Positions 4,854 to 54,488 of a stretch of 64,000 nt of DNA are shown here, one piece after another. The DNA lies in assembly GCF_964204645.1 (NCBI RefSeq), contig NC_134027.1:19926560-19990559 (forward strand), given 5' to 3'. The DNA is from Tubulanus polymorphus (taxonomy: Eukaryota; Animalia; Nemertea). The position numbers and the translations under genes were made by a program. The notes beneath the pieces are model-generated. The model saw nothing but the letters and a program-made list of their open reading frames with translations, was not told the DNA's origin and searched no databases. The first letter of the stretch is position 1, and every line of letters starts with the position of its first letter.

Positions 4854-5462
4854 TTAAATAAATTCATATTTAAATGGGTGTTGTAATCTAAATAATAATT
4901 TTGATCTTTTATTATTTTTCAACTTATCCATATATTCATTATGTAAATCATGTGGAATAATATCATTTTCCTCAAGTGCATTTTTCATCGATTTTCTATC
5001 TTTATTGTAGAATAAAACTAAAAATCTAATGTTTTCTCTAAAATCTTTAACAATTGAATTATATTTTTGATTTAAATCCCAAGTTGTTATCCTAAAATGT
5101 CTACCAGAAAAAGCTAAATAACATAACTCACTCTCTCTAATTTTTGAATCATGTAGATTAGCACAATCATCTATAATGAATAATGTATTAGACCCTTTAT
5201 AAATATCAATTGCTATTTTAATACAATTATCTAGATTTTCTTTTACTGTTTTAGGATCTAGTATAATAAATTCATTATTTCTAGTAATATTTCTATCATA
5301 AGTTTGATTAAATTCATATGTTGGACAAAATAATACTATATTATCAAAATAGTTTTTATAAACAGTTTCTAATAGATTTAATATATAATAAGTTTTTCCA
5401 CAATTTGTTACGCCAGGAATTAACATATTATGAGGCTCAAATATAAATAATTCCTTATTCAT
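4854..5462 (-). CDS. DNA packaging ATPase (A32/FtsK-like)
   Basis: Walker A GVTNCGKT, Walker B FIIDD, SGRHF motif. Confidence 0.92.
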   Translation of the reverse strand: MNKELFIFEPHNMLIPGVTNCGKTYYILNLLETVYKNYFDNIVLFCPTYEFNQTYDRNITRNNEFIILDPKTVKENLDNCIKIAIDIYKGSNTLFIIDDCANLHDSKIRESELCYLAFSGRHFRITTWDLNQKYNSIVKDFRENIRFLVLFYNKDRKSMKNALEENDIIPHDLHNEYMDKLKNNKRSKLLFRLQHPFKYEFI

Positions 5463-6592
5463 TTATATATTTTTAATTTTACTTGATAATATCCATTCAT
5501 TGAATTTATCTGCCCATCCAACCCATTTTACTAAAGAATATGTTTTTCTTTTAACAGTTTTTGTTTTTAATACTTTTTCAATTTTATATTCTTGTTCTAG
5601 ATTTTCAGTAGTTAAACTCAATTCTTCTTCATAAAAATACCCATCAACTTCTTCACCATCTAAATCTTTTTAAATTTATAGACATATGGTTTTGTTGTTA
5701 TTACCTTTTTTATTTTATATATTTCCCTAGTAAAATTTCGATCGTATCCCTTGTCAAATATCTTTTTATACTTAGAAATTCTAACATTTTGACCAACTTT
5801 AAATTTAGGTTCACCAAAATCATCTACAAGAAATGCTCCATATAAATTATTCCAAACAATTTCAGCATTTTCAGGTTTTCTAGCATCAATAGGTTTCATT
5901 CCAATAGAAGAATGGTAAGAATTATTATATCCTTCTATCAATTTTGGTAAAACATCAATCCATTTAAAAGTATTATTTGCTGTAAAATATTTCCACATTC
6001 TTGTTCTTAATGTTCTATTACATCGTTCAACAACTGCTGCTTTTTTATCCGATTTTGTTGAAAAATATTTAATATTATGATTATCGAAGAGTTCATGAAC
6101 AAGTGAATTATCAAATTCTTTTCCATCATCAAATTGTATTTTTTCTGGTTTTAGTTTATCATCCGAAAGAAATTTTCTTAAAACATTTGATGTTTGTGCA
6201 GCATCTTTTCTATAAAGTGGGAAACTCCATACATAACGACTAAAAATATCAATTATATTCAATATCCACCAATAATCATCATTATCTTTTTCAAGATTTT
6301 TCATATCAATTAAATCTCCTTGCCACTGTTGATCTACATAACTTACCATAGTTTTACGAGTTTTATATTATCTAACAATTTTTTTATGTGTTGTATATGT
6401 TGGTTGTTCTAACATAAATTCATTTATATCTTTATATTTAACTAAATTTTCCGGGATTATCTTATCTAATTTATCTTGGTTTACCTGACGCCATATATTT
6501 TTGGTAGAAGAATAAGCAACCGAACTCTCAGGGTTGTAATATAAATTTCTTAAATATTGTTCTTTAGTATTAGGAGTTTTTTTATCCCCCAT
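5463..6592 (-). pseudogene. Retroviral-like (rve) integrase with C-terminal chromodomain; in-frame stop and frameshift
   Basis: QWQGDLID, IQFDDGKEF, VVERCNRT. Stop at 6368-6370 and frameshift near 5670. Confidence 0.93.
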
Positions 6593-24129: not shown

Positions 24130-27100
24130 TAACCATAAGGTAATGTTTTTATTCCATCATCTAAAATATGCCTTTTATCATCAAATGGATTCAAACTAGT
24201 TTTTTCAACTTCATTAATGTACATCTCGTGATCTTCTGATCTTCAACAATTCATTTTATGTTTCATAACAAATGAGTTATATAAACACTTTATTTAATCT
24301 TGAAATTCTATATGTTTATCAACCACATGTTTTGTTATTCCTTTTAACTTTTTAGCTTCATGATCTTTTGTTCTATAACTGTACATTTTACTTCTTATCC
24401 CAACAAATTCAATCATTTCATCACCCCCTAATTCATCTTTAAACTTACCAGGAATCTTTTTATTATCATTACTAAATAGTTCATGATCTTTGGGATAATT
24501 GCTAAAATCAAAATGATGTTTTAATGTTTTTAAGTATTTTGTTATGTCATTTGTCTTGATTTTTAGTATGTAGGCGTCCGTATTTTTGGCTATTAATGGA
24601 AATCCACGGTTAAATGTTCCATCTTCAGTTGATAAATCATAAACATAATCTGATGGTTTATATATTTCGAATAAATCTCTTACTTCTTCAGTTAAATCTT
24701 TTTCTGTATGCCTTAAATTAAAACAATTTGGTTTGGATTTAATTAATTCTATATTCATATTAAATCCTAATGAACTGCATAATATATTCAATCCTGATAT
24801 AGCAACTTTTCCTTTTTGAGCTAAAGATATTGTTTTGTGGTTTTTGAAACTTTTTGAACCATCTGCAGCATAGAACCCAATGAAGAACCATTTTCTTAAA
24901 TTATCTTTTGCATTTAATATATAATCTGGAACTATCTTTTCTTTAGTTGAAGTATTACTTTTCACTATTGCATGAATATAGAATTCATCATTATATTTTG
25001 TAGCAAAATCTTTAGGATTATTTACAAATATTCTATAAACCGCGGATGATTTCATATGATCGACGATTCTAAATGTTTTATGTGAATAAACTTCTTCGCA
25101 GAATTTCTTTATTCTTTCTAATAATTTCAAATCTTGATTGCATAAATACCAACGATATTGAGTGCGATTAACATATTTATACACACCTGCTGAACCATCA
25201 CCCATGAAAAATCCTTTAATAAAATATTCTTTTTCTTCTAATGTTTCAGGTTCTATATTATATATATTATCAATAATTTCGTCGAATGACATATGATTCA
25301 TTCTTTGAAAAAATCTTTTATGGAAAAATTCGCCTCCAATTTTTATATCAGTTGGTTTTATTTCATCACCATTTCGTTTAATTAAACTATGATCTTCTGT
25401 AACATCTACAAACCCTAATTTAGTTCTAACTCTATAGATTTTCTTATTTGTTTTATGTCTAATAATATTCTTTAATTTTTTCCATCCATTTCTTGTCCAA
25501 ACATCCATTAATTCATTTATTTGTATTAATTCTTTTTCACCATACGAAATATAACATTCATTTTGTTTTGGAATTATTTCTGAAATTCTTGTAATTAATA
25601 TTTGGTTATTGTATTTTAATAATATTGGGGTGTCTGCTGTAACAGAATCAAAATATATAATATTTCAATATGCTTTTCCCCAAAAATTGGTTGTAAAACA
25701 TTATAATAAAAATCATACATTAATAATTTTGATACTTCTAAAACAGTTGAACCAATGAATATAGGTTTATTAAATTTCATTGACGTTCTTTTTAATTTTA
25801 CTGCGGTTAAATAATCTTCAAATCTTTTATTTCCTAAATGTCTAGGGCTTGATTGTAAATGCCTTAATCGTTCAGAATTATTTACTAATTCAATATCATT
25901 TCTATTTCTAATATTTTCACATGTTTTTCCATAAAAACTATTGTTCATTAATTTAAAAAAATCTTTTTCGAAATCTTTTTTAGATATTGTTCTCTGTTGA
26001 GTATTGAAATCTATATATTTTTCTAACCACTTCGATTGATTAAATTCAATATATCTATGTACTTTCTTTAATTTCATTCCTTGTTTTAGATAAAATTTTA
26101 ACATTCTTTAATGAACAATATAATTGTATTTATTATTTTGAGTAAGTATTAATTTTTCTGTAAAAACATGATCTTTCGGTTTTATTTTCTTCTGGTATTC
26201 ACTTAAATAACTATCATCTACGGCTAAATGTTCTGGGCAATAAGGTAAGTTTCTTGTTTTAAACTTTATGTTATCAGGATATTCTAAATCAACTACAAAG
26301 AAATAACCAATTGGTGCTTCATCTTTTAAACTCGCAATTGCTCTTTCCCAATCAGTTTTATCATCATTTTCAACTTCTGTTAATATAAAATTTTTGTATG
26401 GTTGAGGTTGCATCATTGTCCAACCATATAAATTATTAGCGTCAATATATAATAATTTATATTCATCATTTGCTTTTAAATGTCTATCTCCCAAAACACC
26501 ACTAATTCCACCTCTAATTGATTTTTCAAATAATAAAACCATGTCTGGTTCTTTTAATAAATCTAACTCTACGTTAGTATATTTTAAACCACATTGCCAG
26601 GTTAAACCAGTACTAGAGTAGCAATAACAAGGATCAACTTCAAATTAACTTCTCAAAATTTTTCAAATATATCAGCCAATATCATAACATCTGATTTTAA
26701 ATATAAATCAACTAATTCACCATGATTTTCATCTTAAAATGGTTCCAAATATTTAATGTTCTATTAAACACTTCATCTTTCACATACTCCTCTTTTAATT
26801 GATCATAAAATTGATCTTTCAATAATTCTGTTACATTAAAATCATTGTGTGTTATATAAAATGAATACGGAATTGCACCTTTATATCTCAATAATTTAAA
26901 ATCTTGTTCATTTGGATAATAATATCGAGTTATAACAAAATCATTATCAACTAAACTTTTTGCTAAATTATCTAATGAACTATTTAAAAATCTATAAGAA
27001 TCAAAAAATCTAATGCAACCACATTGAACTGAAATATAATTTTCAGATGTCTTAGCTAATAGTTTAAAATCATATTTTCTTACATTTACACCATTCATAG

Positions 27101-29166
27101 CATTATATTCATCTATTTCTTGATTAATTGCGCCCAATTTTCCCGATAATTGTTTTATAAATAGATGGGTATCATAGCCTGATAAATTATGAAATAATAT
27201 TGGTACGAAATTAACTTTCTTAGCTTGTAAATTACAATCTTCATGAGCAGCTCCACGATATTTTGAATTTAAATGATCATGATCTCTAACTTTTTTATCA
27301 AATGAATAAAAACGTTTTTCACAATAACAACAATGAGTTGCATAATTAAAATCAATTTCATCTTCTTTTGTCATAACTATTCTTTTATTTTTGTTTAATA
27401 ATTCTGCAAAATCACTTTCTAATTCAATTATTTCATTACAAAAATCATTAACTACATTTTCACCTCTAAAAGAAATATATTGACTTTCATATAATTCGGG
27501 ATAATTTGATTTTATGTAAATTCCATAAGCAGCAGCTCTTTGATGAACTTTTTTCATTGTGTTTATGATTGGTGGGTCTTGATTTATGTCTTCATTTAAT
27601 TCATTTCCTTTATCCATTGATTTTAATAATTGCTTTTTGTTATATATTTCTTTACTATCTTGATCAGTTAATTCTTTATTCAACGATTCAAAATCCCCAT
27701 AAATTATAAATGGAACAATATTTTTAAATTTATGATTAGTAAATTTCAATTTATAATCTTTTTCTGTTGGCATTATTAATTTGCAAAAATCTTTATTATC
27801 ACATAATTCTTTATGTTTTAATAATGTATTCTCAGTCATAAATTTAGATAAACATTTTCTACATAGATAAATTTTATTATGGTGATCACTTTCTGTTCTA
27901 AACAATAAATTGTTTTAACCACACTTAATGTTCATTTTCATCTTTTTTGTAATATAACAAGTCTATAGCATTTTCATCATCATAATATTCTGTTAAATAT
28001 AAAGCTTCTAATGTATAATCTTTAATATTTTCACCTTTTGTCTTTGGTAATTGCATTAATTCGAATACATTTATTTTTAAATTATTAATTTTTTCTATTT
28101 TGGGTATCATTTTTATAGTTACTGGATATTGATCAATTTTATATAATGTTTCATATTTCCGGTAATTTGTTATTCTAAAACTATGCGGAATATCTTCTGT
28201 AAACAACTAATAATTGACCATAGAAAACATTTATTATCTTCATTTTGAACATTTATTACTGCTTTTGTTGTAAATGGTAATTTAATATAACTTGATGCAT
28301 TAATATCCTTTTCTGTTGTAAAGTTTGAGTCATTTTTAAACATTGTTTTACTTTTTGATGTTTCATTCCTTTTTGTATTATAAACATTTAAATCTAAAAA
28401 TATAATTTCATTCAATGTTAAACCAGAACCCTCAAAATATCTTTCTTCAATATGACGTTTAAATTCATTAAATATTTTTTCTAACTTCTCTTTTATTTGT
28501 GTTTTTGAAATTATTTCTTCAGAGAGTGTTTGAATATTATAATCCATTTTCTCTTCTGACTTTAAAAAACTTACTTTCCCAGAGATACTAATTTTTGGAT
28601 ATTCAACATCTGTTATCAAATCTAGTATTTTTTCTATTATTTCATTAATTTTACTATAATCTTCTATTGTTGTACCTTTAAAAAATCTAAATATAATAGC
28701 TGCAGGACCAATTTTACTACGTAATGTTTCTAAAATTTCAATTGTATCTTTTATTTTTAGTGAATCAATATAATTTCTAACATTTTCCATGTAAGGTTTA
28801 TTTGAAATAGATTTAGTTCTTGAAGCTGGTTTTTTACTTGTTGAGGTTTATCATCAAAATAAATTATTCCTTAAACATTATTACTCAAATTTTGATGGTG
28901 TTTTTGTGTTTCGAGATGTCTATTATAATTTCTTTTTGCTATAAATTCATCACAAACTTCGCATTTAATTTTATCCACATTCATATTTTCTAATTGTTCT
29001 TTTCTTACATTGGAATTTTCTGGAGTTTCAAAATCTATAACATTTTTTAAATGATTTGCAGATTTTTCATGACGCGATTTTGAGATTTATCAATGTATTT
29101 TTTACAATATGGACAATGATATTGATTCTCATTAACATCAATTTGTTCTGTCTTATTCTCTCCCAT
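24126..29166 (-). pseudogene. pPolB: Protein-primed family B DNA polymerase of P1, multiple frameshifts, intein-containing
   Basis: YGDFES, FHNLSGYD, YIDANNLYGW, KLMNNSFYGK, YFD[intein]TDA, KLKG. Colinear with the P2 pPolB. Confidence 0.96.
24582..25646 (-). mobile_element. 355-aa intein with LAGLIDADG homing endonuclease in pPolB motif C
   Basis: Starts SVTADTPILL, block B VDVTEDHSL, LAGLIDADG motifs FIKGFFMGDGS and FFIGFYAADGS, block F YVYDLSTEDGTF, ends LIAKN before +1 Thr. Absent from P2. Confidence 0.95.
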
Positions 29167-29250: not shown

Positions 29251-32107
29251 AAGGTGGGACTGGAAGTTCGAGCCTTGGTCTGAGTGTAGCTCCCTTGGCA
29301 CTCCGAAACGACTGAAGAATTCGGTCACAAGCTTGTCAGCTACCGTCTTGGCCTCGATGTCCGTACAGTGTAACATTCCACGCATTTTGTGACATAGTCC
29401 ATTATGACTATGATGTATTGGTTCCCTGCCGTGGTTTCCTGCAGAGGGCCCATGATATCGACCGCTACTCTAACCATGGGGGATCCAACATTGTCCGACT
29501 GAAATTCCGCTTGATATCTTTTCGGTGGCGGTTTCTTCCTGGGACACACCTCGCATTGTTTTACCCATAGATCGATGTGGTCCCGCATCTCTGGCCAGTA
29601 GTACCGTTGCTGCACCTTGGACAACGTTTTCTCGATTCCTTAGTGACCCCCGACACGGCCAGAATGAAGTTGGTCGAATACGGTCCAGCGGAATGGTGGG
29701 GGGACAACTAGTTGGGAAAAGCCGCCTCGGTGAGGTCTACACTTGCGGAACAGTATGTCATCCTTGATCTGAAGTAAGTCCGACTCGGGCCAACAGCGTT
29801 TCGCTTGAGTGCTTTTTGGTGCTACGTCTTGCCACTGTTGTCTTGGTTTTCCTTCGCGTTGAAGTTCAATGAGCCACCCCAGATCCTCGTCGTCAAATTG
29901 GGCTGTTTTCAGCTCTGTCGGGTCCCAAGGCTCGGGGATTTCACCGAATGTCGAGTTAATCACTCGGATAAGCCGACGTTGCGGTGAACGAGCTGCAACC
30001 TGTAGTTCGGTGTCTGTCGATTTGTCGTCCGAGTCACTTCCTCCGTGCTGGACCACGTGGAGGTAGCCTATTTTCTCGCACTGACGACAGGGAATGCGAG
30101 ACAGTCCGTCAGCGTTTCCGTGCTGTGTTCCCTTGCGGTATTCGATTTGGAATTGGAATGATGATAAAGACTCCTGCCAGCGAGCAATTTGTCCTTCGGG
30201 CTCCTTGAGGCTCATCAACCACCGGAGGGCGCTATGGTCGGTTCGTATCAGGAAGTTCTGACCGGTCAGAAAGTGTTTGTAGTACTTAACGAAGTATACT
30301 ACGGCCAGCAACTCCCTACGTGTTACGCAGTAGTTCTGTTCGGCCCTATTTAGCGTCCGACTTCCATAGGCAATTGGTGTTTCCTCGCCCTCCTGTACTT
30401 GGCCTTAAACGCCGCCAATAGCAAAAGCAATCGCGTCGCAGTCTAGGACATAAGGGTCAATAGCGTTCGGCTAGGATTGGTGCGCTAGTCAACCTGTGTT
30501 TCAGATTGCAAAACGCCGACTCGTGTTCCTCCGTCTAAACGAATTTCTGGTCTTTGGCAGTCAGATGATGAAGACTGCTGGCTATTTCTGCTAACCCCGG
30601 GACGAATCGTCGATAGTAGGTGGTGAGACCGAGAAAACTTCGGACTTCTCTAATGTTGGGGGGTATGGCCAGGTCTGGATACATTCGATTTTGGATGGGT
30701 CCGTCTGAATTCTGGCTGCGCTGACTACGTGACCGAGGAAGGCCACCGACTGTTGAAACAGGGAGCATTTCCGAGGTTTCAATTTGAGCCCCGCTTCATT
30801 CAATTTGGCGAGGACTAAGTCCAGCCTTTCGAGCATCTCATCTACGGTGCTGCTGAATATCAATATATCGTCTAAGTAAATTAGACAGACCTCCCACTGT
30901 AGACCGACAAGTACCATTTCCATAAGTCGTTCGAACGTTCCAGGAGCTCCGGACATACCAAACGGTAAAACAGTAAACCGTCACAGGCCACTCTGTTCGA
31001 TCAACCCTCGCCGGTTTATGTCCTGTACCAAGTCTTCGGTGTCCTTCCGTTTACTGAGTGGCGGTAGCCTGGGTGGTTGTCTTATTGGCGCGTGGTCCCC
31101 TGCATTTACTTTGTGTTGCACGAGGTCCGTTTGTCCCAGGTCCTCGTCAGTCCTGGAGAATGCGTTTGAGTGCTAAGTTAAAAGCTCTGCAAGCCGCGTG
31201 GCCTCCGTCGGGTTCAAATGTTCGATGCTGGTTTCGTACAGTTGTTGCACGTGACCGGGGACGTTTGTATTAGGGTCTCCATCTCCTAGACAAGTGTTTT
31301 CTGCATTTAAGTCCATCGAGCGGATTGTTGAAACGGTGGTTAGTCGACCAAGCACTGGCGATCCAGGGAGGACAATCGATTCAACTCCCAAGTTCATGAC
31401 ACGCAGACAATTTGCTGTGTCCCCAGTTCTGGTGTCGATTAACCTTCTGGCAATTGCCAAGTCACCGCCCTCATATCTGGAAGTTTCCTCAACGACGCCT
31501 AGCATCGGTATCCCTCGATCGCCCGAAACGGTTACAGGAATTGTAGCTTGGTGACGTGGGGGTATCTCTACGCTGTCCAGTGTTCTTACGAGGAACTCTG
31601 AATCGGGTTCGATTAATCTCTTCGGATAGAGGACAATCTCTTCGTTTTCGCAGATGAGAAGTGAATTTCCGACATCGAGGAATGAGTTGGTTCGAGAATT
31701 CCGTCTTCTCCGATGCCCGCGACGATAATACTCATACGAAACTTCCGTTGTCCAAACGTCAACGAAACAATCGCTCGTCCGTCAACAGAGAGATCGCCAC
31801 CGTTGGCCCCGAGTAGCCTGAGGTACGATTCTGGTATAGCGGTGTATGCTTTGCTCGAGATTATTGTGGTACAAGCACCCGTGTCCATTAGCAGAGTCCT
31901 CTTTACATAACCAACCTCGGTGATAACATAGAGTCCATTATCTGGGTTGTTTCCCGGATGGTAATTTAGCACGTTGCCTGGGTCGTGTTGGGGCCGATCG
32001 ATCTCGCTAGAATCTCCGGTTGGTGCCCCTTGGAACCGGAGCATTGTCGTTTCCCAAACGCTGTCTGCAGTTATAGCACGTAGAATTCGTTCGGCCCAAA
32101 CTGACAT
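29251..32107 (-). pseudogene. pol: Gypsy pol: protease, partial RT, RNase H, integrase N-terminus
   Basis: LMDTGA; IYLDDILIF; ELLAVVYF..IRTDHSAL..ADGLSR; H...CEVC; VDIMGP; LHSDQGSNF. Confidence 0.93.
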
Positions 32108-34803: not shown

Positions 34804-35745
34804 CTATTCGTTTGCATTTCTACTGCAGATTTTTGTACAAAAATATTCTCGGATTTCACGTCCCAGTAGAAGATATATGTAAAAGTTAGCAGCGTAGTTG
34901 CAAACTTGGAACTGAGTGAATATATCAAAGAAGTAATCTTTAAGCTCCGTAGAGATTGGTAAAAATACAGCAACAGTGGTTGGGAGTGTAAAAATTGCAA
35001 AAGCTAGTGAAACTGTTACGAGCATTATTGTTGTACGTTTTGATTTCGTATCGCGCGATACAAGTTTTGATCCTTTGAATAACTGAACTATTATCACAGA
35101 ATTCGATGTTGTAATCAGAGTTAAAGGTAGAATATAAGATTGTACGACGAATGCAATGAAGTACGTTAATTGATCGAGTAATTCATAATAACATCCAGAG
35201 TTCTCATCAGAAAAATGCATCGATACAGTGGGTAGAAGATATAGTATCAACCCGTTCACTACACTAATTAGCAATGTATTAAATCTTGCAAATCTAGGTG
35301 TACATATCAAACGAGACGTGAACGGGAAGAGCACAACTGCCGCACGTTCTAGAGATATTGCAACTATCAACCACGAACTATTACAAGCCGAAAATGCCAT
35401 TATGAATTCATAGATCTGACAACTAAGCAGCGACTTCATCATATATCTAGGACCGCTGTTTATATGCATAAGTACTAACTGCAAAACAGGCATCAAGGTA
35501 AGATTGACACAGAACACAAAATCGCAGACTGATAAAACGATAAGATAGTTAGCGTAAGATAAACTCCGGAATCTGCGACTTGTCATTATCAAGAAAGTAG
35601 CTGAATTACCGAAGACGCCTAACAGAAACACAGCAGGCAGAATGAACAATGTCAGCATACGGTAGCTTCCAGACTTGTTCATTAAAGACATGAGAACGAT
35701 GTAGCTATCATAAGGTCGATGAATTTGCATACTCGTAAAATTCAT
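34804..35745 (-). CDS. Intronless rhodopsin-like (class A) GPCR, peptide-receptor-like, 313 aa
   Basis: Seven hydrophobic segments; TM1 GN, TM2 LSVCD, TM3 SLER, TM6 TLP, TM7 ANFYIY. Confidence 0.92.
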   Translation of the reverse strand: MNFTSMQIHRPYDSYIVLMSLMNKSGSYRMLTLFILPAVFLLGVFGNSATFLIMTSRRFRSLSYANYLIVLSVCDFVFCVNLTLMPVLQLVLMHINSGPRYMMKSLLSCQIYEFIMAFSACNSSWLIVAISLERAAVVLFPFTSRLICTPRFARFNTLLISVVNGLILYLLPTVSMHFSDENSGCYYELLDQLTYFIAFVVQSYILPLTLITTSNSVIIVQLFKGSKLVSRDTKSKRTTIMLVTVSLAFAIFTLPTTVAVFLPISTELKDYFFDIFTQFQVCNYAANFYIYLLLGREIREYFCTKICSRNANE

Positions 35746-36541
35746 TATTTTGGAACTGTATACTGCTCGATTAGACTGTCTTAAATATATTGGGAAATTG
35801 ATTCAAATTGAAATATGTCGATTCAGATGCCTCATCAATGATTCTTTATATATAAGGAAAGCTATTATTCATTCATTTAGAGACGAAGCTATTCAAAGGA
35901 AAAGTTCATTGTCGACACAAATCAAAAATCAATTCTCTAAAACCCCCGAAATACAATATTCAAATTTGTGTAGAAGCCTATTGTGTAAAATGATGACGTA
36001 CCTAAATAAAAAGTCAATCTTGACAATCAATTCAAAAAATGCACTTAGTTTGACTCGAGAAAAACGGATAGTGTCAATAAGAGAATGCTTTCCACGCATT
36101 AACGATCATATAAAGCAGCTTATAGAATAACAAACATGTTACAAACGCTTCTACAATATAATTTGAAACTTTTAGTTTTCTGGTAGAAAAAAATTGTTTA
36201 GTAAGGCCCGAATCAAACACCATATCGTTTACGTTAACGTAATGATTTACATAAATATTTGAAATATCCAAAATCAACATATCAGGTTGCCTAATTTTGA
36301 GTCAGATGGTTATTTATTGGAATTTCTACACCGGCTATTACAGGTGCATTCATTGTCTCATTAAGATCAATATACTGTACGTATGTAAAAATATTAGCTA
36401 TTGACAAAACGGTCCATGCTGTGATAATACAGAAAAGCTTACAGTTCACTCAACGTTTCGACTACGAGTAGCCATCTTCAGGAATAGTGGGATTGTCTAC
36501 ATGTAAAATGTACGGCATAGTAACAAACCTGAGAATATATC

Positions 36542-40642: not shown

Positions 40643-41758
40643 ATGATGAAAAAAGAACAATATTTAAGAGATTTATATTACAACCCAGAAAGTGAAGTTT
40701 CATATTCAAGTGTTTCGGAATTATGGGATAAAATTAAATCTGATAAAGAAAATGGTGCCGTATGGCACCCACATGGTGCCATAAAATATAGTGAATTAAA
40801 ATCATGGTTACAAAATCAACCCACATATCAAATTCATAAAAAGATGGATAAAAAATATTTAACAAGAAAAGTAATGGTTTCATATATTGACCAACAATGG
40901 CAAGCTGATTTAATTGATATGAAAAACTTAGAAGAATATAACAAAGGATATTTCTGGATACTAAATGTTATAGATATATTCAGTAGATACGCATGGAGTA
41001 TCCCGATTAAAAATAAAACTGGTATAGAAGTTACAAATTCTTTCAAATTAATATTTAAAGAAGCTATCCCAGATAAAATACAATTTGATGAAGGTAAGGA
41101 ATTTTATAACAAACATTTTAAAAAACTATTATCTGATAACGATGTAGATTATTTTTCAACACACTCAGATAAAAAAGCATCTATTATAGAAAGATTTAAT
41201 AAAACATTGAAAACTAGAATGTGGAAATATTTCACCGCTAATGAAACATATAAATATATCGATGTGTTAGATGATTTAGTTAAAGGTTATAATAATTCTA
41301 AACATAGTTCTATAAATATGAAACCTATACAAGCTAGAAAAGAAGAAAATTCAGAAATAGTTTGGAATAATTTATATGGAGCATTTGCTACACATGATTT
41401 TGGAGAACCTAAATTTAAAATAGGACAACATGTTAGAATTTCTAAATATCGAAAAACATTTTATAAAGGTTATACCCCTAATTTTACTGAAGAAATATTT
41501 AAAATTAAAAAGATAATATTAACTAAACCATTTGTTTATAAATTGTTTGATTTAAAAGATGAAGAAATATTAGGTTATTTTTATGAACAAGAATTATCAT
41601 TAGTACCAAATCCAGATGAAATAGAATACAAAATAGAAAAGGTATTAAAAACTAAAACATTACGCGGTAAGAAATATTCTCTGGTGAAATATAAAGGATA
41701 TGATGATAAATTTAATGAATGGATTTTATCTAGTAAAATTAAAAGAATAAATGAATAA
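40643..41758 (+). CDS. rve integrase with C-terminal chromodomain, intact, 371 aa
   Basis: QWQADLID, IQFDEGKEF, IIERFNKT (DDE); YKIEKVL...LVKYKGY...NEW. Confidence 0.96.
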   Translation: MMKKEQYLRDLYYNPESEVSYSSVSELWDKIKSDKENGAVWHPHGAIKYSELKSWLQNQPTYQIHKKMDKKYLTRKVMVSYIDQQWQADLIDMKNLEEYNKGYFWILNVIDIFSRYAWSIPIKNKTGIEVTNSFKLIFKEAIPDKIQFDEGKEFYNKHFKKLLSDNDVDYFSTHSDKKASIIERFNKTLKTRMWKYFTANETYKYIDVLDDLVKGYNNSKHSSINMKPIQARKEENSEIVWNNLYGAFATHDFGEPKFKIGQHVRISKYRKTFYKGYTPNFTEEIFKIKKIILTKPFVYKLFDLKDEEILGYFYEQELSLVPNPDEIEYKIEKVLKTKTLRGKKYSLVKYKGYDDKFNEWILSSKIKRINE

Positions 41759-42365
41759 AGATTTGTTTATATTTGAACCACATAATATGTTAGTTACTGG
41801 AGTTACAAATTGTGGTAAAACACACTTCATATTATATTTATTAGAAACTATTTATAAAAATCATTTTGATAATATAATATCATTCTGCCCAACTTATGAA
41901 ATGAATGAAACGTATAATAGAGATATAGTTTTTAAAGATAAAAAGTTTATTATATTAAATTCTAAAACAGTAAAAGAAAATTTAGATAATTGTATAAAAA
42001 TTGCATTAGATATTTATAAAGGATCTAATACATTATTTATTATCGATGATTGCGCAAATTTACATGATTCAAAAGTTAGAGAAAGTGAGTTATGTTATTT
42101 AGCTTTCTCTGGTAGACATTTTGGGATAACAACATGGGTTTTAAATCAGAAATATAATTCAATTGTGAAAGATTTTAGAGAGAATATAAGATTTCTAGTT
42201 TTATTCTACAACAAAGATAGAAAATCTATGCAACAATCATTGGAAGAAAATCAAATTATACCTACTGAAAAACATGATGAATATATGAATAAATTAAGAA
42301 ATAATAAAGGTTCCAAATTACTTATGAGATTACAATTTCCATATGAATATAAATTTATAAAATAA
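41751..42365 (+). CDS. DNA packaging ATPase
   Basis: GVTNCGKT, FIIDD, SGRHFGI. Confidence 0.93.
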   Translation: MNKDLFIFEPHNMLVTGVTNCGKTHFILYLLETIYKNHFDNIISFCPTYEMNETYNRDIVFKDKKFIILNSKTVKENLDNCIKIALDIYKGSNTLFIIDDCANLHDSKVRESELCYLAFSGRHFGITTWVLNQKYNSIVKDFRENIRFLVLFYNKDRKSMQQSLEENQIIPTEKHDEYMNKLRNNKGSKLLMRLQFPYEYKFIK

Positions 42366-43454: not shown

Positions 43455-43486
43455 TTATTATATATATTTTTATTAAAGTTAAAATT

Positions 43487-44734
43487 TTAATACATAACAC
43501 TATCTAATTGTGAATTTACAATATTTAATTGCGCGTCAGATATAATATAAATGTGCATTTTAAAATTTTTGATTCCTTTATTCTTTGTCATGAATAATTG
43601 TATTCCATCTTTAGTGTTCTGTAGTTTTTTTCCAGAACCATGTAATGAATTATCTTCAGTTGTTCTAAAATCTAACCATAATGCATATTTATTACCGGTA
43701 TAATAATCAATTTGATTAATATTACAATCTTCAGATGATTTTATTTTTTCATTCATAAAATGTTTTTTAATTTCTACCCATTGATCAATCATTCTCATTC
43801 CTTGACAGAATATTTTATTCGCTATTCCTTCGATAGTTATTTCTACTTTTGTTATTTCAGGATTATAATAATTATCAAAATTTATTGCACCATTAGTATA
43901 CGTTCCAATGGTAAAAAATATTAATATACCTTTAATAGATCTTCTAGGAAAGTTAATATTCTCATTAATTATTTCATCATTTGCATTAATAGTTACAGTT
44001 TTAAATTTATCAATATAATCATATAATAATGAAAACCCTTGATTGTATTGAGTTTGAATTATACTTGAAATATTTTCATCAGTTACTGTATCATATTCTA
44101 AACATATATTCGATAATTTATAACTCATATCTTTATTAACGCTAGATAATACAATTTCATTTACAGGAGCAAATGTTATCTCAAATATAATATCTTCTTG
44201 AATTGCGTATTTATATAAAGGTGCATTATTATTTATCAATTCAAAGTCTAATGGAATTTTATATTTGCTTCCATATATACTTTTTATCAATTTATCTACA
44301 TCATTAGTTAATATTGCGCTATTAGCTTCTGATCTTAATTTATTTTGGTTTTCTGATTGAATTCCTTGAAATATCATATTATTTCTATTTTCTTTAGTTA
44401 ACCATAAATCTTTATAATGTGAAAATAAATTATAATCATCTAATGAGAAAACTGTTTCTGGACCAATCTTTATTGTTAACTTTTTAATCAAATATCTTCC
44501 AACATTATCAACGACATAATTATTATTATTACCGATTACTTTTATATCAGCCGATAAATAAATACTATTTGGAACATAAAAAGTATTTTGTGTTAATCGA
44601 GGGATTCTAACGTATAAAGTTTCATCGGGATTAATATTTGAAGGGTTATGAGTAATTATATGATGTGATCTTTCTGCTTTAATAGCATTAGATATTCTAG
44701 AAATCTTAGAAGGACTTATATAACTTCCACTCAT
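43487..44734 (-). CDS. Putative major capsid protein (double jelly-roll expected), 415 aa
   Basis: Size, beta-strand-like alternation, strong conservation with P1 and position in the structural block. The fold is an inference. Confidence 0.7.
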   Translation of the reverse strand: MSGSYISPSKISRISNAIKAERSHHIITHNPSNINPDETLYVRIPRLTQNTFYVPNSIYLSADIKVIGNNNNYVVDNVGRYLIKKLTIKIGPETVFSLDDYNLFSHYKDLWLTKENRNNMIFQGIQSENQNKLRSEANSAILTNDVDKLIKSIYGSKYKIPLDFELINNNAPLYKYAIQEDIIFEITFAPVNEIVLSSVNKDMSYKLSNICLEYDTVTDENISSIIQTQYNQGFSLLYDYIDKFKTVTINANDEIINENINFPRRSIKGILIFFTIGTYTNGAINFDNYYNPEITKVEITIEGIANKIFCQGMRMIDQWVEIKKHFMNEKIKSSEDCNINQIDYYTGNKYALWLDFRTTEDNSLHGSGKKLQNTKDGIQLFMTKNKGIKNFKMHIYIISDAQLNIVNSQLDSVMY

Positions 44735-44758
44735 TTATTTAACAAAAAAATTAATTAT

Positions 44759-46249
44759 TTATTTTTTGATATCATGGTTTACTTGATATTTTTTGATTAT
44801 GTTTACTAAACCAAAAATAATAGCACTTACAACTGTAATTAAAAATAAAATAATATGTTCAGCAGCAAAGTTAATAATGTTTCCTGCAGATTTCAATATA
44901 AAACCAACAGTTGATGCAATAACTCCTGGTAATGCTGCAGCAGATTTTTTAGATAGTTCCCATAAATATTTTGCTAATTTCTTTAAACCATCCTTAACTT
45001 TATCTTGTATAGAATTATTACCGGGAGGTTTATCTGGTTTATTGGGAGTGGGAGTAGGAGTAGATTTCAAAGCATTTGATATTGCTAAACCAATTGTTGT
45101 AAATAACATAGTTACAGCTGTTAGAATTGAAAGAACTGTTATTCCTTCAAACTTAAATAATAATTTTATTCTATCTTTTAGTGATATGTCAGAATTTGGT
45201 TTTAGTATTAACTCTTTAACAACAACTTTTAATCTATTAATACAATAATCATATGATTTTAATAATAATTTCATTTTTTCTTTCTGAAATTCTATGTTAT
45301 ATTCTAAATCATCAATTTCTTTTTCTAAATATGCATTTCTTTTTTTAAATTCAATTTCTTCAATAACTTTAAATTCTCTATCTAATTTTAATTGTTCTAA
45401 TTCTTTTCTGGTGTCAAATAATTTATTTTCTAAAGGTTTAATTTTATTATATCTAATATGTTTTTCGCGAGCAATTTTATCGGCATCATTTCGTATACTT
45501 ATTATTTCTCTAATTGTTTTTTTAGAAAACATACTTAAAGCTTCTATTTTTTTATCTGTTGCATCAAGTAATCCATTCGGTAAAAGTTTTTCAGTTTGAA
45601 CTTCAGTGTTTGATTTAAGTTTACTAGTTTTGGAAGTTTTATTCTGTTCAGAAGTTGTTTCTGTTTCTGGATTATCTTTGATTGTTTCAAATAATTTATT
45701 AATTCTTTGTTTAAATACTCTTTCATTTTTAATAATTTCTTCTTGTGTTGCATCTTCTATTTCATTACTATTACTTATTCTTTTAATTCTAGATAGTAAT
45801 GAGTCAGACTTAAGCAAAGTTGATTTTGCTAATATTTTTTCTCCTTTTTTATAAGAGATATCAATATAATAATCATCTTTCAAATGATAATAATATTCAC
45901 CATCTAAAGCTTTTAATTCTTTTACTAAAAGTCTGGCGCCTCTGGTATTTATATTATATCCAGAATCTTTAAATACATGTTGAAAATCATACATAAATTC
46001 AATATTTTCTAAATTTTGTCTTGATAAACCTTGATTTTCATTTTCAGGATTTATTCTCGATCTAGTTCTTCTATCAAATTCATCTGTTGATGGGGCTTTA
46101 GAACCACTATCTGCTAAATTAGAATTATATGCTGATTCATCATCATTATCAATATTAGTTTCTGCATCATTATAATCATCATCAATATATCCTTCATTAT
46201 TATTTCCCATTTCTCCCATTTCATAATCTTCTCCACCTTCTACATCCAT
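44759..46249 (-). CDS. 496-aa acidic/coiled-coil protein with C-terminal hydrophobic and amphipathic helices
   Basis: Long ORF with TAAATG start; homolog in P1. Confidence 0.85.
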   Translation of the reverse strand: MDVEGGEDYEMGEMGNNNEGYIDDDYNDAETNIDNDDESAYNSNLADSGSKAPSTDEFDRRTRSRINPENENQGLSRQNLENIEFMYDFQHVFKDSGYNINTRGARLLVKELKALDGEYYYHLKDDYYIDISYKKGEKILAKSTLLKSDSLLSRIKRISNSNEIEDATQEEIIKNERVFKQRINKLFETIKDNPETETTSEQNKTSKTSKLKSNTEVQTEKLLPNGLLDATDKKIEALSMFSKKTIREIISIRNDADKIAREKHIRYNKIKPLENKLFDTRKELEQLKLDREFKVIEEIEFKKRNAYLEKEIDDLEYNIEFQKEKMKLLLKSYDYCINRLKVVVKELILKPNSDISLKDRIKLLFKFEGITVLSILTAVTMLFTTIGLAISNALKSTPTPTPNKPDKPPGNNSIQDKVKDGLKKLAKYLWELSKKSAAALPGVIASTVGFILKSAGNIINFAAEHIILFLITVVSAIIFGLVNIIKKYQVNHDIKK

Positions 46250-47654
46250 TTACATAATAAAAAAAGTAAAATTTAAAATATAATATTCCTCCGATTACAA
46301 TTCCTATACAAGTTATAGCTAATTTAGTATTTTCATGGGATTTATTATCATCATTTAGTTTAATTATATCATGTTGAATAATATCGGTTCTATTATTTTC
46401 TGATGTATTGTAATCTTTTATTTTAGAATCATTATCCAATTTAATATTCTTAGTTTTAGTTTCAGTTGATTGAATATGTTTTTTATTTTTTTCACCTTCC
46501 ATTAATTTTGGAGCAGTAATAATCTTTTTATTTATATCATTTAATCCAAATGAATTATTTATTGTTGCAGTTTTAATTAGATTATTATAACCAATTATGT
46601 TTCCCATCTTTAATACTAAATCATTAGAAATAATTAATAGATTAGGGCCTATACAATAATTAAGTCTTACATGAGATTTATCTAAATAATTTTGATATCT
46701 TATAATGTTTTCTGGAATCGATCTATTTTTATCATTATGAATTGAATCTTCAAATAAAACTTTAAACTGTTTCTGCGCATCGAATGAAGTGTTATCATTT
46801 CCAATTATCGGTGATCTTGTTTCAACTTGCGCACCTAAAATACAAATTAAATAAGTTCTAATAGATTGATTTATTCTTTCTATACCTGATTTAGTAAAAC
46901 CTTCACTATTTTCTAAAATAAAATATACCCAACCATTATTGTTTTCTTGTTTTAAATTATCATAAAATTTTGGTAATTTATTGAAATTTAATGTTTCTAA
47001 ATCCTTTGTTTCTATTTTACCATAACCTAATTTATTATTATAGATATTATAAAAACTATTAGATGGTATGGGAAGTGCACAATATTCTGCAATCTTTCAA
47101 GGGCATGGAAGTGATCTTATTGTTCCAATTTTTGTTCTAAAATCAGAATTATTTATATCTATATTAAATTCATTGCAAATTTTATAAAACTTAGATAAAT
47201 TAATATTATTATCTAATTCTTTGAAATACCTAGATCCTGGTAAAGCGCACTCTAATTCATTTAATATTATTCTGATTTGAAAGTATGTATGAAATCTAAA
47301 TAAACTTTGAATTAATTTATATTTAGAATTATTCAAATGATCATTCCAACTAATTCCACATCCTGTTGTTGCACAATAAACAGCAAAATTTAATTGATTC
47401 TGCCAATACTTCATATTAGATTTTAATAACCATTGTTTTTCATCTTTCAATTTTTTAAAATTAATTAAATATATATGAAATATATTTTCCATCTTTGCAT
47501 TAAAATTATTAGTTTCAGTAACATAAATTTCTAAATTAGTTAATGAATCTAAAACTTCATTTCTATATGTAATATCTTTATTAAAATCTATTGCTGGAAT
47601 ATTATATTTAATTGATTTATTATGTTGGAAAGCTTTTGGAAAACTATCTACCAT
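46221..47654 (-). pseudogene. Conserved Polinton protein (WQNQLNFAVYC, C-terminal TM), disrupted near 47097
   Basis: ORFs 47097-47654 and 46221-46607, with the intervening sequence homologous to P1. Confidence 0.8.
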
Positions 47655-47670
47655 TTATATAATTAAAAAA

Positions 47671-48105
47671 TTAATAATTTATTAATTCTTTTAATAATTT
47701 ATCTTGTTCTTCAACTGTTATATGACCATTTAAACTTATTATATTATCTAGTGTATTCTTTAATTTATTAATTTCTTTTATATTAGTTTTAATTTTTTCT
47801 TTATTACTTTTTATATTCAATTTTGAACTTTTACCAGTTAAAACACTTGAACTTAATCCTAATACACCAATTGATATAGCTAAAGGTGTTAATGGGCTGA
47901 ATATTGCTAGAAATGTTATTACAGAACTAATTGTAACCGAACCACTTATAATCAAATGATATATAATTTTACTTTTTAAATATTTTTTCTTTTTTATCTT
48001 TAAGTCACTTTCAAATTCTAATATTTGTTTTTCTAAATATGTTTTTAATTTAGTTTTATTTATATCATGAGGAATAATATCAATACTATCAACTTTATCT
48101 TCCAT
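47671..48105 (-). CDS. 144-aa two-TM protein
   Basis: Two hydrophobic stretches flanked by helical Lys-rich regions. Confidence 0.85.
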   Translation of the reverse strand: MEDKVDSIDIIPHDINKTKLKTYLEKQILEFESDLKIKKKKYLKSKIIYHLIISGSVTISSVITFLAIFSPLTPLAISIGVLGLSSSVLTGKSSKLNIKSNKEKIKTNIKEINKLKNTLDNIISLNGHITVEEQDKLLKELINY

Positions 48106-48125
48106 TTATTTAACAAAAAAAATTA

Positions 48126-48548: not shown

Positions 48549-48573
48549 TTATTTAGCAAAAAAAATTATGCAT

Positions 48574-49143: not shown

Positions 49144-49159
49144 TTATATAGGTGAAAAA

Positions 49160-50295: not shown

Positions 50296-53200
50296 TTAAC
50301 ACGCTAGAATCCTTTTCATAATCTCATTTTCTTTTGTTTCTTCTCTTTTGAATTTTATATATTCATCTAAATTGCAACCATAGGCGACTGTGTGGATTCC
50401 ATCATCTAAAATATATCTTTTATCATCAAATGGATTCAAACTTATCTTCTCTATCTCTTCAATATACATTTCATGATCTTCAGATCTTAAACATTTCATC
50501 TTATGTTTTCTAACTTCTTCATTAAATATACAATTGATATAATCTTTAAAATGAATATTCTTTTCAACAACGCTTTTGGTTATTCTTTTTAACTTTTTAG
50601 CTTCATGTTCTTTAGTTTTATATGAATACATTTTAGATCTAATACCTATGAACTCTATCATTTCTTCACCACCTAATTCATCTTTGAATTTACCGGGAAC
50701 TTTTTTATTATCATTGCTAAACAATTCATGATCTTTAGGATAGTTACTGAAATCAAAATGATGTTTTAATGTTTTTAAATCATCAGTTATATTATCAGTT
50801 TTTATCTTTAATATGTAAGAATCTGTATCAAAATATAAGATTTCTATATGTTTTTCTCCAAAATGAGGTTGTAATACGTTATAATAGAATTCATACATCA
50901 ATAGCTTTGAAATTTCTAAAACTGCAGCTCCAACATAAATCGGTTTATTAAATTTCATTGAAGTTCTTCTCATATTAACTGCTGCTAAATTTTCATCAAA
51001 TATTCTGTTACCTATAAACTTAGGATATGATTGTAAATGCCTTATCCTTTTACCATTACTAACTAACTCAATATCATTTCTATTTCTAATATTTTCACAA
51101 GTCTTACCATAGAACGCATTGTTCATTAGTTTGAAGAAATCCTTCTCAAAATCAGTTTTAGATTTAGTTCTCTGTGTAGTATTAAAATCTATATATTTTT
51201 CTAACCATTTAGATTGACTGAATGAAATATATCTATGTACTTTTTTTAATATCATTCTTTGTCTCAAATAAAACTTCAACATTCTATAATGCACAACGTA
51301 ATTATATTTATCTTCTTGAGTTACCATTAACTTTTCAGTATGAATATGATTATCGGGTTTAATTCTTTTTTGATAATTTGATAATTCTTCATGTTTAACA
51401 GTTTTATGTTCGGGACAATATGCTAGATTTCTAGATTTGAATTTAATATTTTCAGGGTATTCTAAATCTACAACGAAGAAGTAACCAATATCTGAATCAT
51501 CTGCAATATCTAGGATTCTTTTCTTCCAATCAAATTTATCAATTTGTAAAACTTCAGTTATTTCAAACATCCCATAAGGTTGTGGTTCCATCATTGCCCA
51601 ACCATAAAGATTATTTGCATCTATGTATAATAATTTATATCCAGGATTATCATTTACATTGAAATATCTATCACCCAATACACCTGAAACACCTCCTCTT
51701 ATAGATTTTTCAAATAATAGTAATTGATCTATATTTGTTAACAAATCCATTTTTATATCTGTAAATTTTAATCCACAATCCCATGTTAATCCTGGTGATG
51801 AATAACAATGACAAGGATCAATATTGAAATATTTTAGGTTTACATCTCTAAACCTTTCGAATATATCGGTTAATAATAATACATCTGATTTTAAATATAA
51901 ATCTACTAATTGCCCGTGATTTTCTATTTTGAAATGATTCCAAATATTCAATGTTCTATTATAGACTTCATCTTTAACATATTCATTTTTTAATTCATCA
52001 TAGAATTGTTCTTTTAATAATTCAGTTATATTAAAATCATTATGATTTTTATAGAAAGAATATGGAATCGCTCCTTTATATCTCATTAATTGGAAATCAT
52101 CATTATTTGGGTAATATTCTTTTAATATCTTTAATTCATCATCAACTAATGATTTTGATAAGTTATCTAATGAACTACTTAAAAATCTATATGAATCTAT
52201 AAATCTTAGACAACCAAATTGGAATGATATATAATTCTCAGATGTTTTAGCTAACATTCTAAATTTATAAGTTGGTATTTTATCTTTTGATCTATTTGAA
52301 TTTAATATTTCTATTTCATTATTGATTTCTTCTATTTTGTGACATAACCGTTTGATAAATAAATGTGCATCATATCCTGATAGGTTATGAAATATAACTG
52401 GTACAAAGTTAATTTTCTTAGCTTGTAAGTTACAATTCTCATGTGCAGCGCCTCTAAACTTTCCATTCAAATGATCATGGTCTCTTACTTTTTTATCTTT
52501 ATAATTAAATATCTTTTCACAATAATAACATTTATCTGCAAACGCAAATTCTTCTTTATCTTTTTCTGTCATTATAATTTCTATATTTGTATTCAATAAT
52601 TTACTAAATCTTATTTCATATTCAATTAATAAGTCACAAAAATGATTGATAACATTTTCATTTCTATAATTATAATATTCACTTTTAATTAGTTCTGGAT
52701 AATTAGATTTAATATATAACCCTAAAGCTGCAGCTGATTGATGAATCTTTTTAATTGTATTTGTTATTGGTGGTTCTTCTGAATAATCACTTTCATTAGA
52801 ATTTAATTTCTTTCTTTTATAACATATATCTTTTCTATCTTTATCTGTTAATTCTTTATTTAATGATTCAAAATCTCCATATATTACAAATGGTAATTTA
52901 TTTTTGTAATCATATTTTTTGAATTCTAATATTTTATCCTTTTCATTTGGTAAAACTAATTTACAATAATCATGATTATCACATAGTTGTTTATGATTTA
53001 ATAATGTACTTTCATTACTAAATTTATGTAAACATTTTCTACATAGATATATTTTATTATGGTGATCACTTTCTGATTTGAAAAATAAATCGATTTGTTT
53101 AATCCACATATAATGATTTTCATAATATAGTATATCTATAACATCATTTGAATCATAATCTTTTGATAGATATAAAGGTTCTAATGTATAATGTTTTATG

Positions 53201-54330
53201 TTGTTACCTTTTGTATTTGGTAATTTGATTAAATCAAATACATTTATTTTAAGATTATTATCTCTTTCTATTTTTGGAATATTTTTAATTCTAACAGGAT
53301 ACTTATCTATCTTATAATTATTTTCAAATTGTTTATAATGAGTTAATCTAAAACTATGTTGTTTATAATCTTCAACTGGGTGTAAACAACTTATTATAGC
53401 CCATATAAAACATTTATTATCAAAATTTTGTATATTTATTACACCATTAGTTTTAAATGGTAGTTTAATATAACTTGTTCCATTTATACTATCATCTTTA
53501 TAATATGATAAATTATTTTCATCAATTGGTTTTGATTTAGTTAACTTATTATATTTTGTGTTATAAACATGTAAAGTTATAAATATTATCTCATCAAATA
53601 TTAAACCAGATCCTTCAAAATATTTCTCTTCTATTTTAGTTTTTATTTCATTATAACATTTATTTAATTTATCATCTATATGTTGTTTAGATATAATATG
53701 TTGTGAATGAGAATTTATATTATATATTGGTTTATCTTCAGATTTTATAAATTTAACTTTAACTGATATACTAATTTTTGGATATTCTACGTTTGTAATT
53801 ATTTTTATTATTTCTTTCATATTTTCTAAATGTTTTTTATTTTCTTCTAATGTTTTTCCTTTATGAAATTTAAACTCGATAGCTGCTGGACCAATATCAC
53901 TTTTAAATGCTTCGGTTATCTCTATATCTTTTTTATTATCTAATGAATTAATATAATTTCTTACATCTTCCATGTATGGTCTTTTATTGTTTAATTTATT
54001 TTTTATTCTTTTAATTGTCTTCTGTTTCTTATCGTTATCATTATCAAAATAATCTTCACCTAAAATATCATTATTCTTATTTCTAATATGACTTTTAGAT
54101 TTAAAATGTTCATTATAATATCTTTTATCACTGAATGATTGATTACATGTATCACATTTGTATGTTTCTTTTTCATCCTTTAATTCTTCTAATTTAGTTT
54201 CTAATATATCATCTTTATATTCTAGTTTCAATTTATTCTCTAAATGTGTTCTAGTTTTATTGTGTCTTGCTTTTTGGGATTTATCTATATTTATCTTACA
54301 TGTTGGGCAGTAGTACTTATTTGCTTCCAT
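50296..54330 (-). CDS. pPolB: Protein-primed family B DNA polymerase, 1344 aa, open frame, no intein
   Basis: N-terminal zinc fingers, OTU-like NFDNKCFIWA...HY, Exo YGDFES / HNLSGYD / YLKSD, endonuclease VII-like RDHDH...AHENCN, YIDANNLY, KLMNNAFYGK, YFDTDS. Confidence 0.98.
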   Translation of the reverse strand: MEANKYYCPTCKINIDKSQKARHNKTRTHLENKLKLEYKDDILETKLEELKDEKETYKCDTCNQSFSDKRYYNEHFKSKSHIRNKNNDILGEDYFDNDNDKKQKTIKRIKNKLNNKRPYMEDVRNYINSLDNKKDIEITEAFKSDIGPAAIEFKFHKGKTLEENKKHLENMKEIIKIITNVEYPKISISVKVKFIKSEDKPIYNINSHSQHIISKQHIDDKLNKCYNEIKTKIEEKYFEGSGLIFDEIIFITLHVYNTKYNKLTKSKPIDENNLSYYKDDSINGTSYIKLPFKTNGVINIQNFDNKCFIWAIISCLHPVEDYKQHSFRLTHYKQFENNYKIDKYPVRIKNIPKIERDNNLKINVFDLIKLPNTKGNNIKHYTLEPLYLSKDYDSNDVIDILYYENHYMWIKQIDLFFKSESDHHNKIYLCRKCLHKFSNESTLLNHKQLCDNHDYCKLVLPNEKDKILEFKKYDYKNKLPFVIYGDFESLNKELTDKDRKDICYKRKKLNSNESDYSEEPPITNTIKKIHQSAAALGLYIKSNYPELIKSEYYNYRNENVINHFCDLLIEYEIRFSKLLNTNIEIIMTEKDKEEFAFADKCYYCEKIFNYKDKKVRDHDHLNGKFRGAAHENCNLQAKKINFVPVIFHNLSGYDAHLFIKRLCHKIEEINNEIEILNSNRSKDKIPTYKFRMLAKTSENYISFQFGCLRFIDSYRFLSSSLDNLSKSLVDDELKILKEYYPNNDDFQLMRYKGAIPYSFYKNHNDFNITELLKEQFYDELKNEYVKDEVYNRTLNIWNHFKIENHGQLVDLYLKSDVLLLTDIFERFRDVNLKYFNIDPCHCYSSPGLTWDCGLKFTDIKMDLLTNIDQLLLFEKSIRGGVSGVLGDRYFNVNDNPGYKLLYIDANNLYGWAMMEPQPYGMFEITEVLQIDKFDWKKRILDIADDSDIGYFFVVDLEYPENIKFKSRNLAYCPEHKTVKHEELSNYQKRIKPDNHIHTEKLMVTQEDKYNYVVHYRMLKFYLRQRMILKKVHRYISFSQSKWLEKYIDFNTTQRTKSKTDFEKDFFKLMNNAFYGKTCENIRNRNDIELVSNGKRIRHLQSYPKFIGNRIFDENLAAVNMRRTSMKFNKPIYVGAAVLEISKLLMYEFYYNVLQPHFGEKHIEILYFDTDSYILKIKTDNITDDLKTLKHHFDFSNYPKDHELFSNDNKKVPGKFKDELGGEEMIEFIGIRSKMYSYKTKEHEAKKLKRITKSVVEKNIHFKDYINCIFNEEVRKHKMKCLRSEDHEMYIEEIEKISLNPFDDKRYILDDGIHTVAYGCNLDEYIKFKREETKENEIMKRILAC

Positions 54331-54488
54331 TTTAATACTATATTTTTTATTAAAATTGATTTTAGAAGTTCAATGATTTAAATGTTATTCATATATATGA
54401 ATATTTTAAGAGTAATAGGGGTAATAGGCTTTCAAGCTAAAGGTTGAACGGGCGGGTGAGTAAAAATGAAAAACATATCCCTATTACT
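54217..54488 (-). repeat. P2 right TIR with internally deleted terminal palindrome
   Basis: Matches 37001 back to about 36742, then jumps to the terminal ATCCCTATTACT. Confidence 0.9.

Follow-up and report, generated by a model that had tools for sequence, protein, structure and literature searches.

A polymerase gene in the chromosomal DNA of the ribbon worm Tubulanus polymorphus contains a canonical intein of the homing type, which belongs to a known allele; both the type of gene that hosts it and the type of genome are new for such an intein. That it may home is suggested indirectly, by comparison of related sequences. The window, by which we mean the whole stretch of 64,000 nucleotides analyzed here, includes the Polinton elements P1 and P2, and the intein interrupts the protein-primed polymerase (pPolB) of P1 (Table 1). 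The reading we favor, and regard as probable, is that of a pol-c LAGLIDADG intein in a chromosomal Polinton polymerase, predicted to self-splice and likely to home into empty related pPolBs.

Table 1. Features of the window discussed in the text, with positions counted from its first letter.
Feature	Position	Strand	Evidence or remarks
Polinton P1	3431..29250	.	terminal inverted repeats starting AGTAATAGG; 6-bp target duplication AAGGTG
P1 pPolB, C-extein	24132..24581	-	begins TDAY; two stops
pol-c intein, 355 aa	24582..25646	-	stop-free frame, profiles, fold, motifs
C-terminal splicing region, blocks F and G	24582..24686	-	no block F His; Lys penultimate
LAGLIDADG homing endonuclease domain, about residues 121-313	24708..25286	-	PF14528, Foldseek, kept acidic residues
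N-terminal Hint splicing region, residues 1 to about 110	25317..25646	-	TIGR01445; all-strand in model
P1 pPolB, N-extein	25647..29157	-	frame changes and stops; tblastn with P2 pPolB; PF03175
Gypsy-type retroelement: RT, RNase H, integrase zinc finger, first part of integrase core	29251..30980	-
Rhodopsin-family GPCR open frame, host marker	34804..35802	-	PF00001
Polinton P2	36542..54488	.	ends AGTAATAGG; 6-bp target duplication TATATC
P2 pPolB, intact 1357-aa frame without intein	50296..54369	-	empty site between 50827 and 50826

The insert reads through 355 codons without a stop (SVTADTP...LIAKN in translation); none of 2000 shuffles of it was free of stops, and the mean was 35. It sits exactly in motif C of the polymerase (YxD/TD, the slash marking the insertion point). 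Two profiles match above their cut-offs, namely the intein N-terminal model TIGR01445 over residues 2-88 (30.5 bits, cut-off 24.5) and LAGLIDADG_3, PF14528 (31.5 bits, cut-off 22.5), and the Pfam model Intein_splicing (PF14890) scores 27.2 bits (E 4e-6), under its cut-off of 35.8. A structure model calculated from a 70-row alignment reached a pLDDT of 93.4 and a pTM of 0.92. Its best Foldseek matches in the PDB are inteins with a homing endonuclease (E 7e-17 to 1e-10); the solved folds comprise TliVMA, PhoVMA, PI-PkoII, PI-PfuI and PI-SceI, and also I-DmoI, while the matches among viral models are led by polymerase inteins of large DNA viruses (phycodnavirus, pandoravirus, marseillevirus). Insertion falls after YxD in motif C and the top similarity is to inteins at the same site. 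Judged from sequence and model, the insert is thus a Ser1/Thr+1 intein with a predicted LAGLIDADG nuclease, and its allele is pol-c. An earlier note, made from the letters alone, had proposed a full-length Hint and LAGLIDADG intein, an in-frame insert with a set of quoted motifs, and the pol-c site. The profiles and folds agree with the first, the uninterrupted minus-strand frame with all motifs in place with the second, and the site as described in passages of PMC549080 with the third.

Checked against the residue list given in parts of PMC4031507, the insert carries the class 1 splicing set: Ser1, Thr83 and His86 in block B, Asp337 (block F:4), Asn355 and the +1 Thr. The ends had already been described as splicing-compatible, and the rest of the set bears this out. 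Arg63-His64, placed by motif and by alignment to PI-PkoII (2cw7), fits motif NX, whose His in Ser1 inteins is preceded by Arg or Lys according to a section of PMC10189870. The acidic residues of both LAGLIDADG helices, Asp150 (GFFMGDG) and Asp262 (GFYAADG), are present as well. Across 110 aligned inteins, a set that omits the 11 of 121 proteins that the motif could not cut, His64, His86 and Asp337 score 1.00 and the two acidic residues are retained in 95-96%; Ser1 and the terminal Asn follow in this set from the rule used for cutting and so carry no independent weight. Both the block F His and the penultimate His are absent from the insert, with Lys354 preceding Asn355. These histidines are the usual helpers of splicing and are not obligatory. 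They usually assist Asn cyclization, as set out in the same portion of PMC4031507. The earlier note was right that the penultimate residue is Lys instead of the usual His, but as a defect it does not hold up: Lys is the commonest state among the relatives (60 of 110), and 52 of 110 lack both helper histidines, so the penultimate Lys is a family trait and decay at Lys354 was rejected.

Since the insert splits catalytic motif C, splicing is needed for a working polymerase. It would follow class 1 with oxyester chemistry, in which Ser1, aided by His64, Thr83/His86 and Asp337, would act together with Thr+1 and Asn355, and splicing of the precursor would restore motif C. The freed intein would then cut an empty pPolB site in any nucleus that also contains a plus copy; with the plus copy as template, repair would transfer the intein with short flanks and spread it among Polintons.

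The intein-bearing element is chromosomal. P1 is bounded by its target duplication and splits one Gypsy integrase, the remainder of which lies at 3179-3430 on the opposite side of P1. The element carries genes for pPolB, an A32 ATPase and an rve integrase, as well as a capsid-like gene with a weak profile match (PF16903, E 0.005); a hallmark check within the window found no Polinton protease gene. The best matches of the GPCR between P1 and P2 are from Tubulanus polymorphus (60% identity, E 5e-111; the four best of 8), and because this neighbor is 60% identical to a ribbon worm protein we take the DNA to be animal and probably spiralian. The AAGGTG duplication, the split Gypsy integrase and the GPCR alongside uphold the animal genome of the earlier note, and contamination was rejected. 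The GPCR itself is encoded in a single frame and belongs to a family that has expanded in ribbon worms; sequencing run X5 covers parts of it several hundred-fold, a depth that suggests either many paralogs or a repeat embedded in the gene.

The surroundings hold further mobile DNA. A palindromic element of 9.8 kb is nested in P1 (10038-19823; target duplication GTTTTG). Its ends, AGTAATTAG, resemble the P1 terminus, its arms are 92% identical, and in each arm a 94-bp repeat recurs about 30 times and is accompanied by a 24-bp array. The element has the appearance of a Polinton satellite that is non-autonomous. In a comparison of P1 and P2 (6594-10036 and 19942-22732 with 43461-49909, and 4858-6406 with 40817-42358), the structural block is 90% identical, while the polymerase and integrase/ATPase blocks are 74-78% identical and differently arranged, a mosaicism that suggests an exchange of modules between Polinton families. 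A third Polinton, similar to P2, starts at 60498 with an AGTAATAGG end and runs past 64000; its left end (60498-60829) and that of P2 (36542-36807) are short palindromes, in which a second copy of the terminal motif faces inward. Between these two lies a LINE-type element with endonuclease and reverse transcriptase pieces (55759-57898).

In a blastn comparison of the window with itself, P1 25647-28797 aligns with P2 50827-53980 at 73.5% identity and P1 24131-24583 with P2 50376-50828 at 78.4%. These alignments abut the insert on both sides, which shows that P2 contains nothing corresponding to it and that the insertion is precise; P2 reads through the site as ILYFD/TDSY. P2 had been taken for an empty allele, and it does lack the insert, but with 74-78% DNA identity between the polymerases, and 63% amino acid identity over a 400-aa upstream piece, it is a diverged paralog and not a close allele. 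A co-conversion tract between P1 and P2, likewise envisaged, was looked for and not seen, since identity is not raised beside the site. The P2 site is a possible substrate for cleavage; four of the first nine bases past it differ from P1. The EndoVII/HNH domain of P2, at residues 601-649, lies apart from the intein site.

The P1 polymerase has decayed, with seven frame changes among eight tblastn pieces and several stops (eight asterisks, some within overlapping piece ends); PF03175 matches one N-extein piece slightly below its cut-off. A lesion-free insert would arise by chance with P 0.04-0.12 at 8-12 lesions, in keeping with the earlier judgment that the contrast between intact insert and lesioned extein is weak evidence. 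As its polymerase is broken, the P1 copy can be at most a homing donor.

Sequencing reads extend these observations to the P1 family. Genomic run X5 covers the insert 135-246x and the adjacent extein 285-430x, with about 16x on unique flank (7-14 at single places). This depth, used in place of a genome-wide tally of plus and empty copies, suggests about 10-30 intein copies, a figure that free episomes or a hemizygous flank would shift. Reads at the P1 end enter many different flanks (788 loose ends, agreement 0.36), and several P1 breaks are absent from most reads, so that the family is in better shape than the P1 copy. Ten read differences in the insert come from the rows listed, 40 of about 1200; nine are at third positions and seven are silent (P 0.0006-0.018), which among these rows points to probable selection on the insert frame. 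No joint that skips exactly the insert occurs among 15 listed of 78. Record 7 of the contigs of run X1 is about 87% like P2 (P1 itself is about 79% like P2), and its match ends at 50828, the base at which an intein-plus copy also stops matching P2.

Plus and empty alleles that are close to each other were found in database families. The P0004 cluster has 136 members, and the 15 listed comprise seven plus, six empty and two uninformative ones, with plus and empty alleles about 98% identical. At the protein level and for these 15 of 136 members, which are related rows, all ten residues diagnostic of plus or empty fall between -7 and +44 relative to the site, and the remaining 800 columns contain none; the two forms differ by 40-42% beside the site and by 1-4% far off. 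In the plus members the patch is like that of further families with the intein, and among the empty members the site occurs in three sequence versions. Such a site-centred patch may have arisen by co-conversion or by escape from cutting. The P0007 cluster includes an empty member that shares 97-99% identity with plus members, and altogether plus and empty forms occur in three polymerase lineages. Homing among Polinton copies, as put forward in the earlier note, therefore gains indirect support from the patch in a related family but none from P1 and P2, and it is possible that the pattern of plus and empty forms also fits vertical descent with loss by recombination.

Eight of the 120 longer homologs listed are pPolBs with an intein at the same site; the remaining ones are mostly large-virus-type PolBs, with a few topoisomerases II or ADP-ribosylglycohydrolases. 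Of 120 further proteins examined after a profile search, 43 are closest to pPolB inteins, and 28 of these also have a pPolB extein; many of the 43 are fragments on contigs of 10-700 kb. A library search matched 2056 clusters at E 0.001, and among 201 loci from viral, metagenome and prokaryote collections a pPolB-type extein occurs in none, while 192 have PolB-like flanks. In trees of 73 and 29 rows picked from top matches, the pPolB inteins form one clade (support 100/99; SH-aLRT 99 in the 73-row tree) whose members are 40-63% identical to each other; the support for its sister group is 52. Intein and polymerase trees branch alike among HNH-type pPolBs, the extein tree leaving out P0003, P0140 and three short proteins with short overlap. 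From this shared branching the capture of the intein appears old, and vertical descent fits the matching trees equally well. A recent capture by the P1 element was rejected, given the one old clade and its agreement with the polymerase tree. The closest viral identities, 41-42%, are to giant-virus contigs; they make an origin in large viruses likely, as far as an unrooted tree allows. Of the pickup from a co-infecting large DNA virus proposed earlier, the kinship with large-virus PolB inteins thus stands, while a recent event in this element does not. Two archaeal genome bins (L192:6001-6984 and L193:6001-6984), one labelled Promethearchaeota, contain 36% identical pol-c inteins in PolB.

One relative, P0006, carries an intein 45-47% identical in a polymerase that BLAST does not match significantly to P2 (best E about 0.1) and whose motif we take to be VSR-like. 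By an AU test, a position of P0006 outside the HNH-type group is also acceptable (p 0.13); because a similar intein sits in a very distant polymerase, a transfer between pPolB types is required wherever P0006 branches. The history we envisage would accordingly start with a single old capture from the pool of PolB pol-c inteins, most likely those of a large DNA virus, after which the intein would have descended together with HNH/EndoVII-type pPolBs and moved at least once into a pPolB of the VSR type. The intein family also occurs in ADP-ribosylglycohydrolase (GGD/TDT) and topoisomerase II (DQD/TDG), at sites mimicking motif C, and these copies (P0038, P0096, P0101, P0118, P0119 and P0122) represent non-allelic spread. 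In P0305, P0437, P0439 and P0326 (clusters of 55 and 14 members) the intein has only 11 residues before it and 4-6 after; this P0305-type subfamily encodes the intein as an almost free-standing frame, possibly in non-autonomous elements.

Three other explanations have to be weighed. The intein may splice while its nuclease no longer drives its spread, being inherited with the polymerase and giving rise to empty alleles through recombination with intein-free relatives. The like branching of intein and extein trees among HNH-type pPolBs would be expected then, the three site sequences of the empty P0004-cluster members are what separate imports would give, and many database copies are fragments. 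Yet both LAGLIDADG acidic residues are kept over a clade only 40-63% identical, three separate polymerase lineages contain plus as well as empty alleles, the divergence is limited to the site, and the intein crossed into a very distant pPolB type, so that we consider purely passive inheritance unlikely. Far less probable still is that the intein splices poorly for want of the penultimate and block F histidines, that plus Polintons are non-autonomous and use helper polymerases, and that the frame is kept for the nuclease only. Such a view could draw on the two missing histidines, on the broken P1 polymerase and on the P0305 cluster, which encodes the intein with just 11 and about 4 flanking residues. 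It is opposed by full-length intein-plus pPolB frames of 1476-1693 aa (P0003, P0004 and six cluster mates, P0009, P0010, P0452) and by the occurrence of His-less ends in large-virus PolBs, which presumably must splice to replicate.

The idea to which we give the least credence concerns the DNA itself, which might be contamination, free virus or a chimeric assembly instead of animal chromosome. The animal assignment comes from one GPCR family, and no single listed read contig spans the stretch; however, the 6-bp target duplications on either side of P1 match, the element interrupts a single Gypsy integrase, reads at its end run into many different flanks, flank and intein are both found in one genomic run, and none of the 201 viral, metagenome and prokaryote loci has a pPolB-type extein. 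Beyond the pol-c homing intein that we favor, a broader proposition appears to us evenly poised between true and false: that these sequences form an old and still active clade of homing inteins, which would splice in animal cells, move between Polinton families within a host genome, have jumped between two deep pPolB types, and select for cleavage-resistant empty sites.

The closest known systems are the PolB pol-c inteins of Nucleocytoviricota, described in passages on Mimivirus (PMC549080) and on prasinoviruses (PMC5371798). They occupy the same site (YGD/TDS, here YxD/TD[SA]) and share Ser1, Asn, Thr+1 and LAGLIDADG with the present intein, which is 30-42% identical to many of them; homing and exchange of inteins among prasinoviruses are reported in the latter source in the portion consulted. 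In contrast to these, the host protein here is the protein-primed PolB of an integrating Polinton, present in many chromosomal copies in an animal, and the pPolB inteins group in a clade apart, without two short segments that most of the viral relatives shown possess. Archaeal PolB inteins of the pol-c/Ser1 motif NX kind (PI-PkoII, 2cw7; PolB16, in excerpts of PMC10189870) share the fold and the RH of motif NX, and identity reaches 36% in two archaeal genome bins. Their hosts, however, are cellular or phage primer-dependent PolBs in prokaryotes, and most of their matches are weaker than the viral ones.

Nucleases within Polinton pPolBs are familiar from HNH and VSR inserts, but in the available sections of Jeong et al. 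(10.1101/2023.08.22.554363) and Krupovic et al. (PMC11161782) these are fixed domains, not at motif C, for which no splicing domain is described; the words 'Hint', 'LAGLIDADG' and 'homing' occur 0 times in the accessible text of the former. Krupovic et al. (PMC11071308, PMC11161782) devote one sentence to the suggestion that pPolB nuclease inserts stem from intein invasions. Virus-borne polymerase inteins on nuclear scaffolds have likewise been described by Gallot-Lavallee et al. (PMC10710043), although those in the text at hand are giant-virus insertions in non-animal hosts, algae and labyrinthulomycetes; 'polinton', 'metazoa' and 'animal' do not occur in the main text as available, nor 'polinton' and 'metazoa' in two supplement files. 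In the corresponding part of PMC5784728, Green et al. write that metazoan genomes lack inteins, and they name iridoviruses and other large viruses among the carriers. No Polinton intein appears in the portions covered of PMC12220804, PMC3671162, PMC13768754, PMC5718144 and PMC5371798, and 'intein' has no occurrence in the covered parts of the adintovirus, vertebrate Maverick and coral polintovirus papers. The earlier note knew of no inteins in Polinton pPolBs, and we found no Hint intein in a pPolB, Polinton or animal genome in the full-text literature outside most subscription journals, InBase, Repbase reports and bioRxiv supplements.

A multi-copy intein in animal chromosomes qualifies the statement that inteins are absent from metazoa, with the proviso that the host gene is viral and not cellular. 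Work on intein inhibitors as drugs leans on this absence, according to a passage of PMC5784728. The finding extends the pol-c allele to protein-primed polymerases, and what Krupovic et al. offered as speculation now has an actual case. Since single Polinton families include both plus and empty alleles, sequence alone suffices for testing homing, co-conversion and site escape, and the clade is a source of compact Ser1/Thr+1 inteins and of new LAGLIDADG specificities that may work in animal cells. Because an intein of the large-virus type had to meet a Polinton in one cell, it can serve as a marker of an earlier co-infection, a point relevant to the question whether the Polintons of animals live in a virophage-like manner. 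If the clade is indeed old and still active, it would rank as the first lineage of inteins to reside in the genomes of animals, and would preserve, as a fossil record, gene flow out of giant viruses into Polintons.
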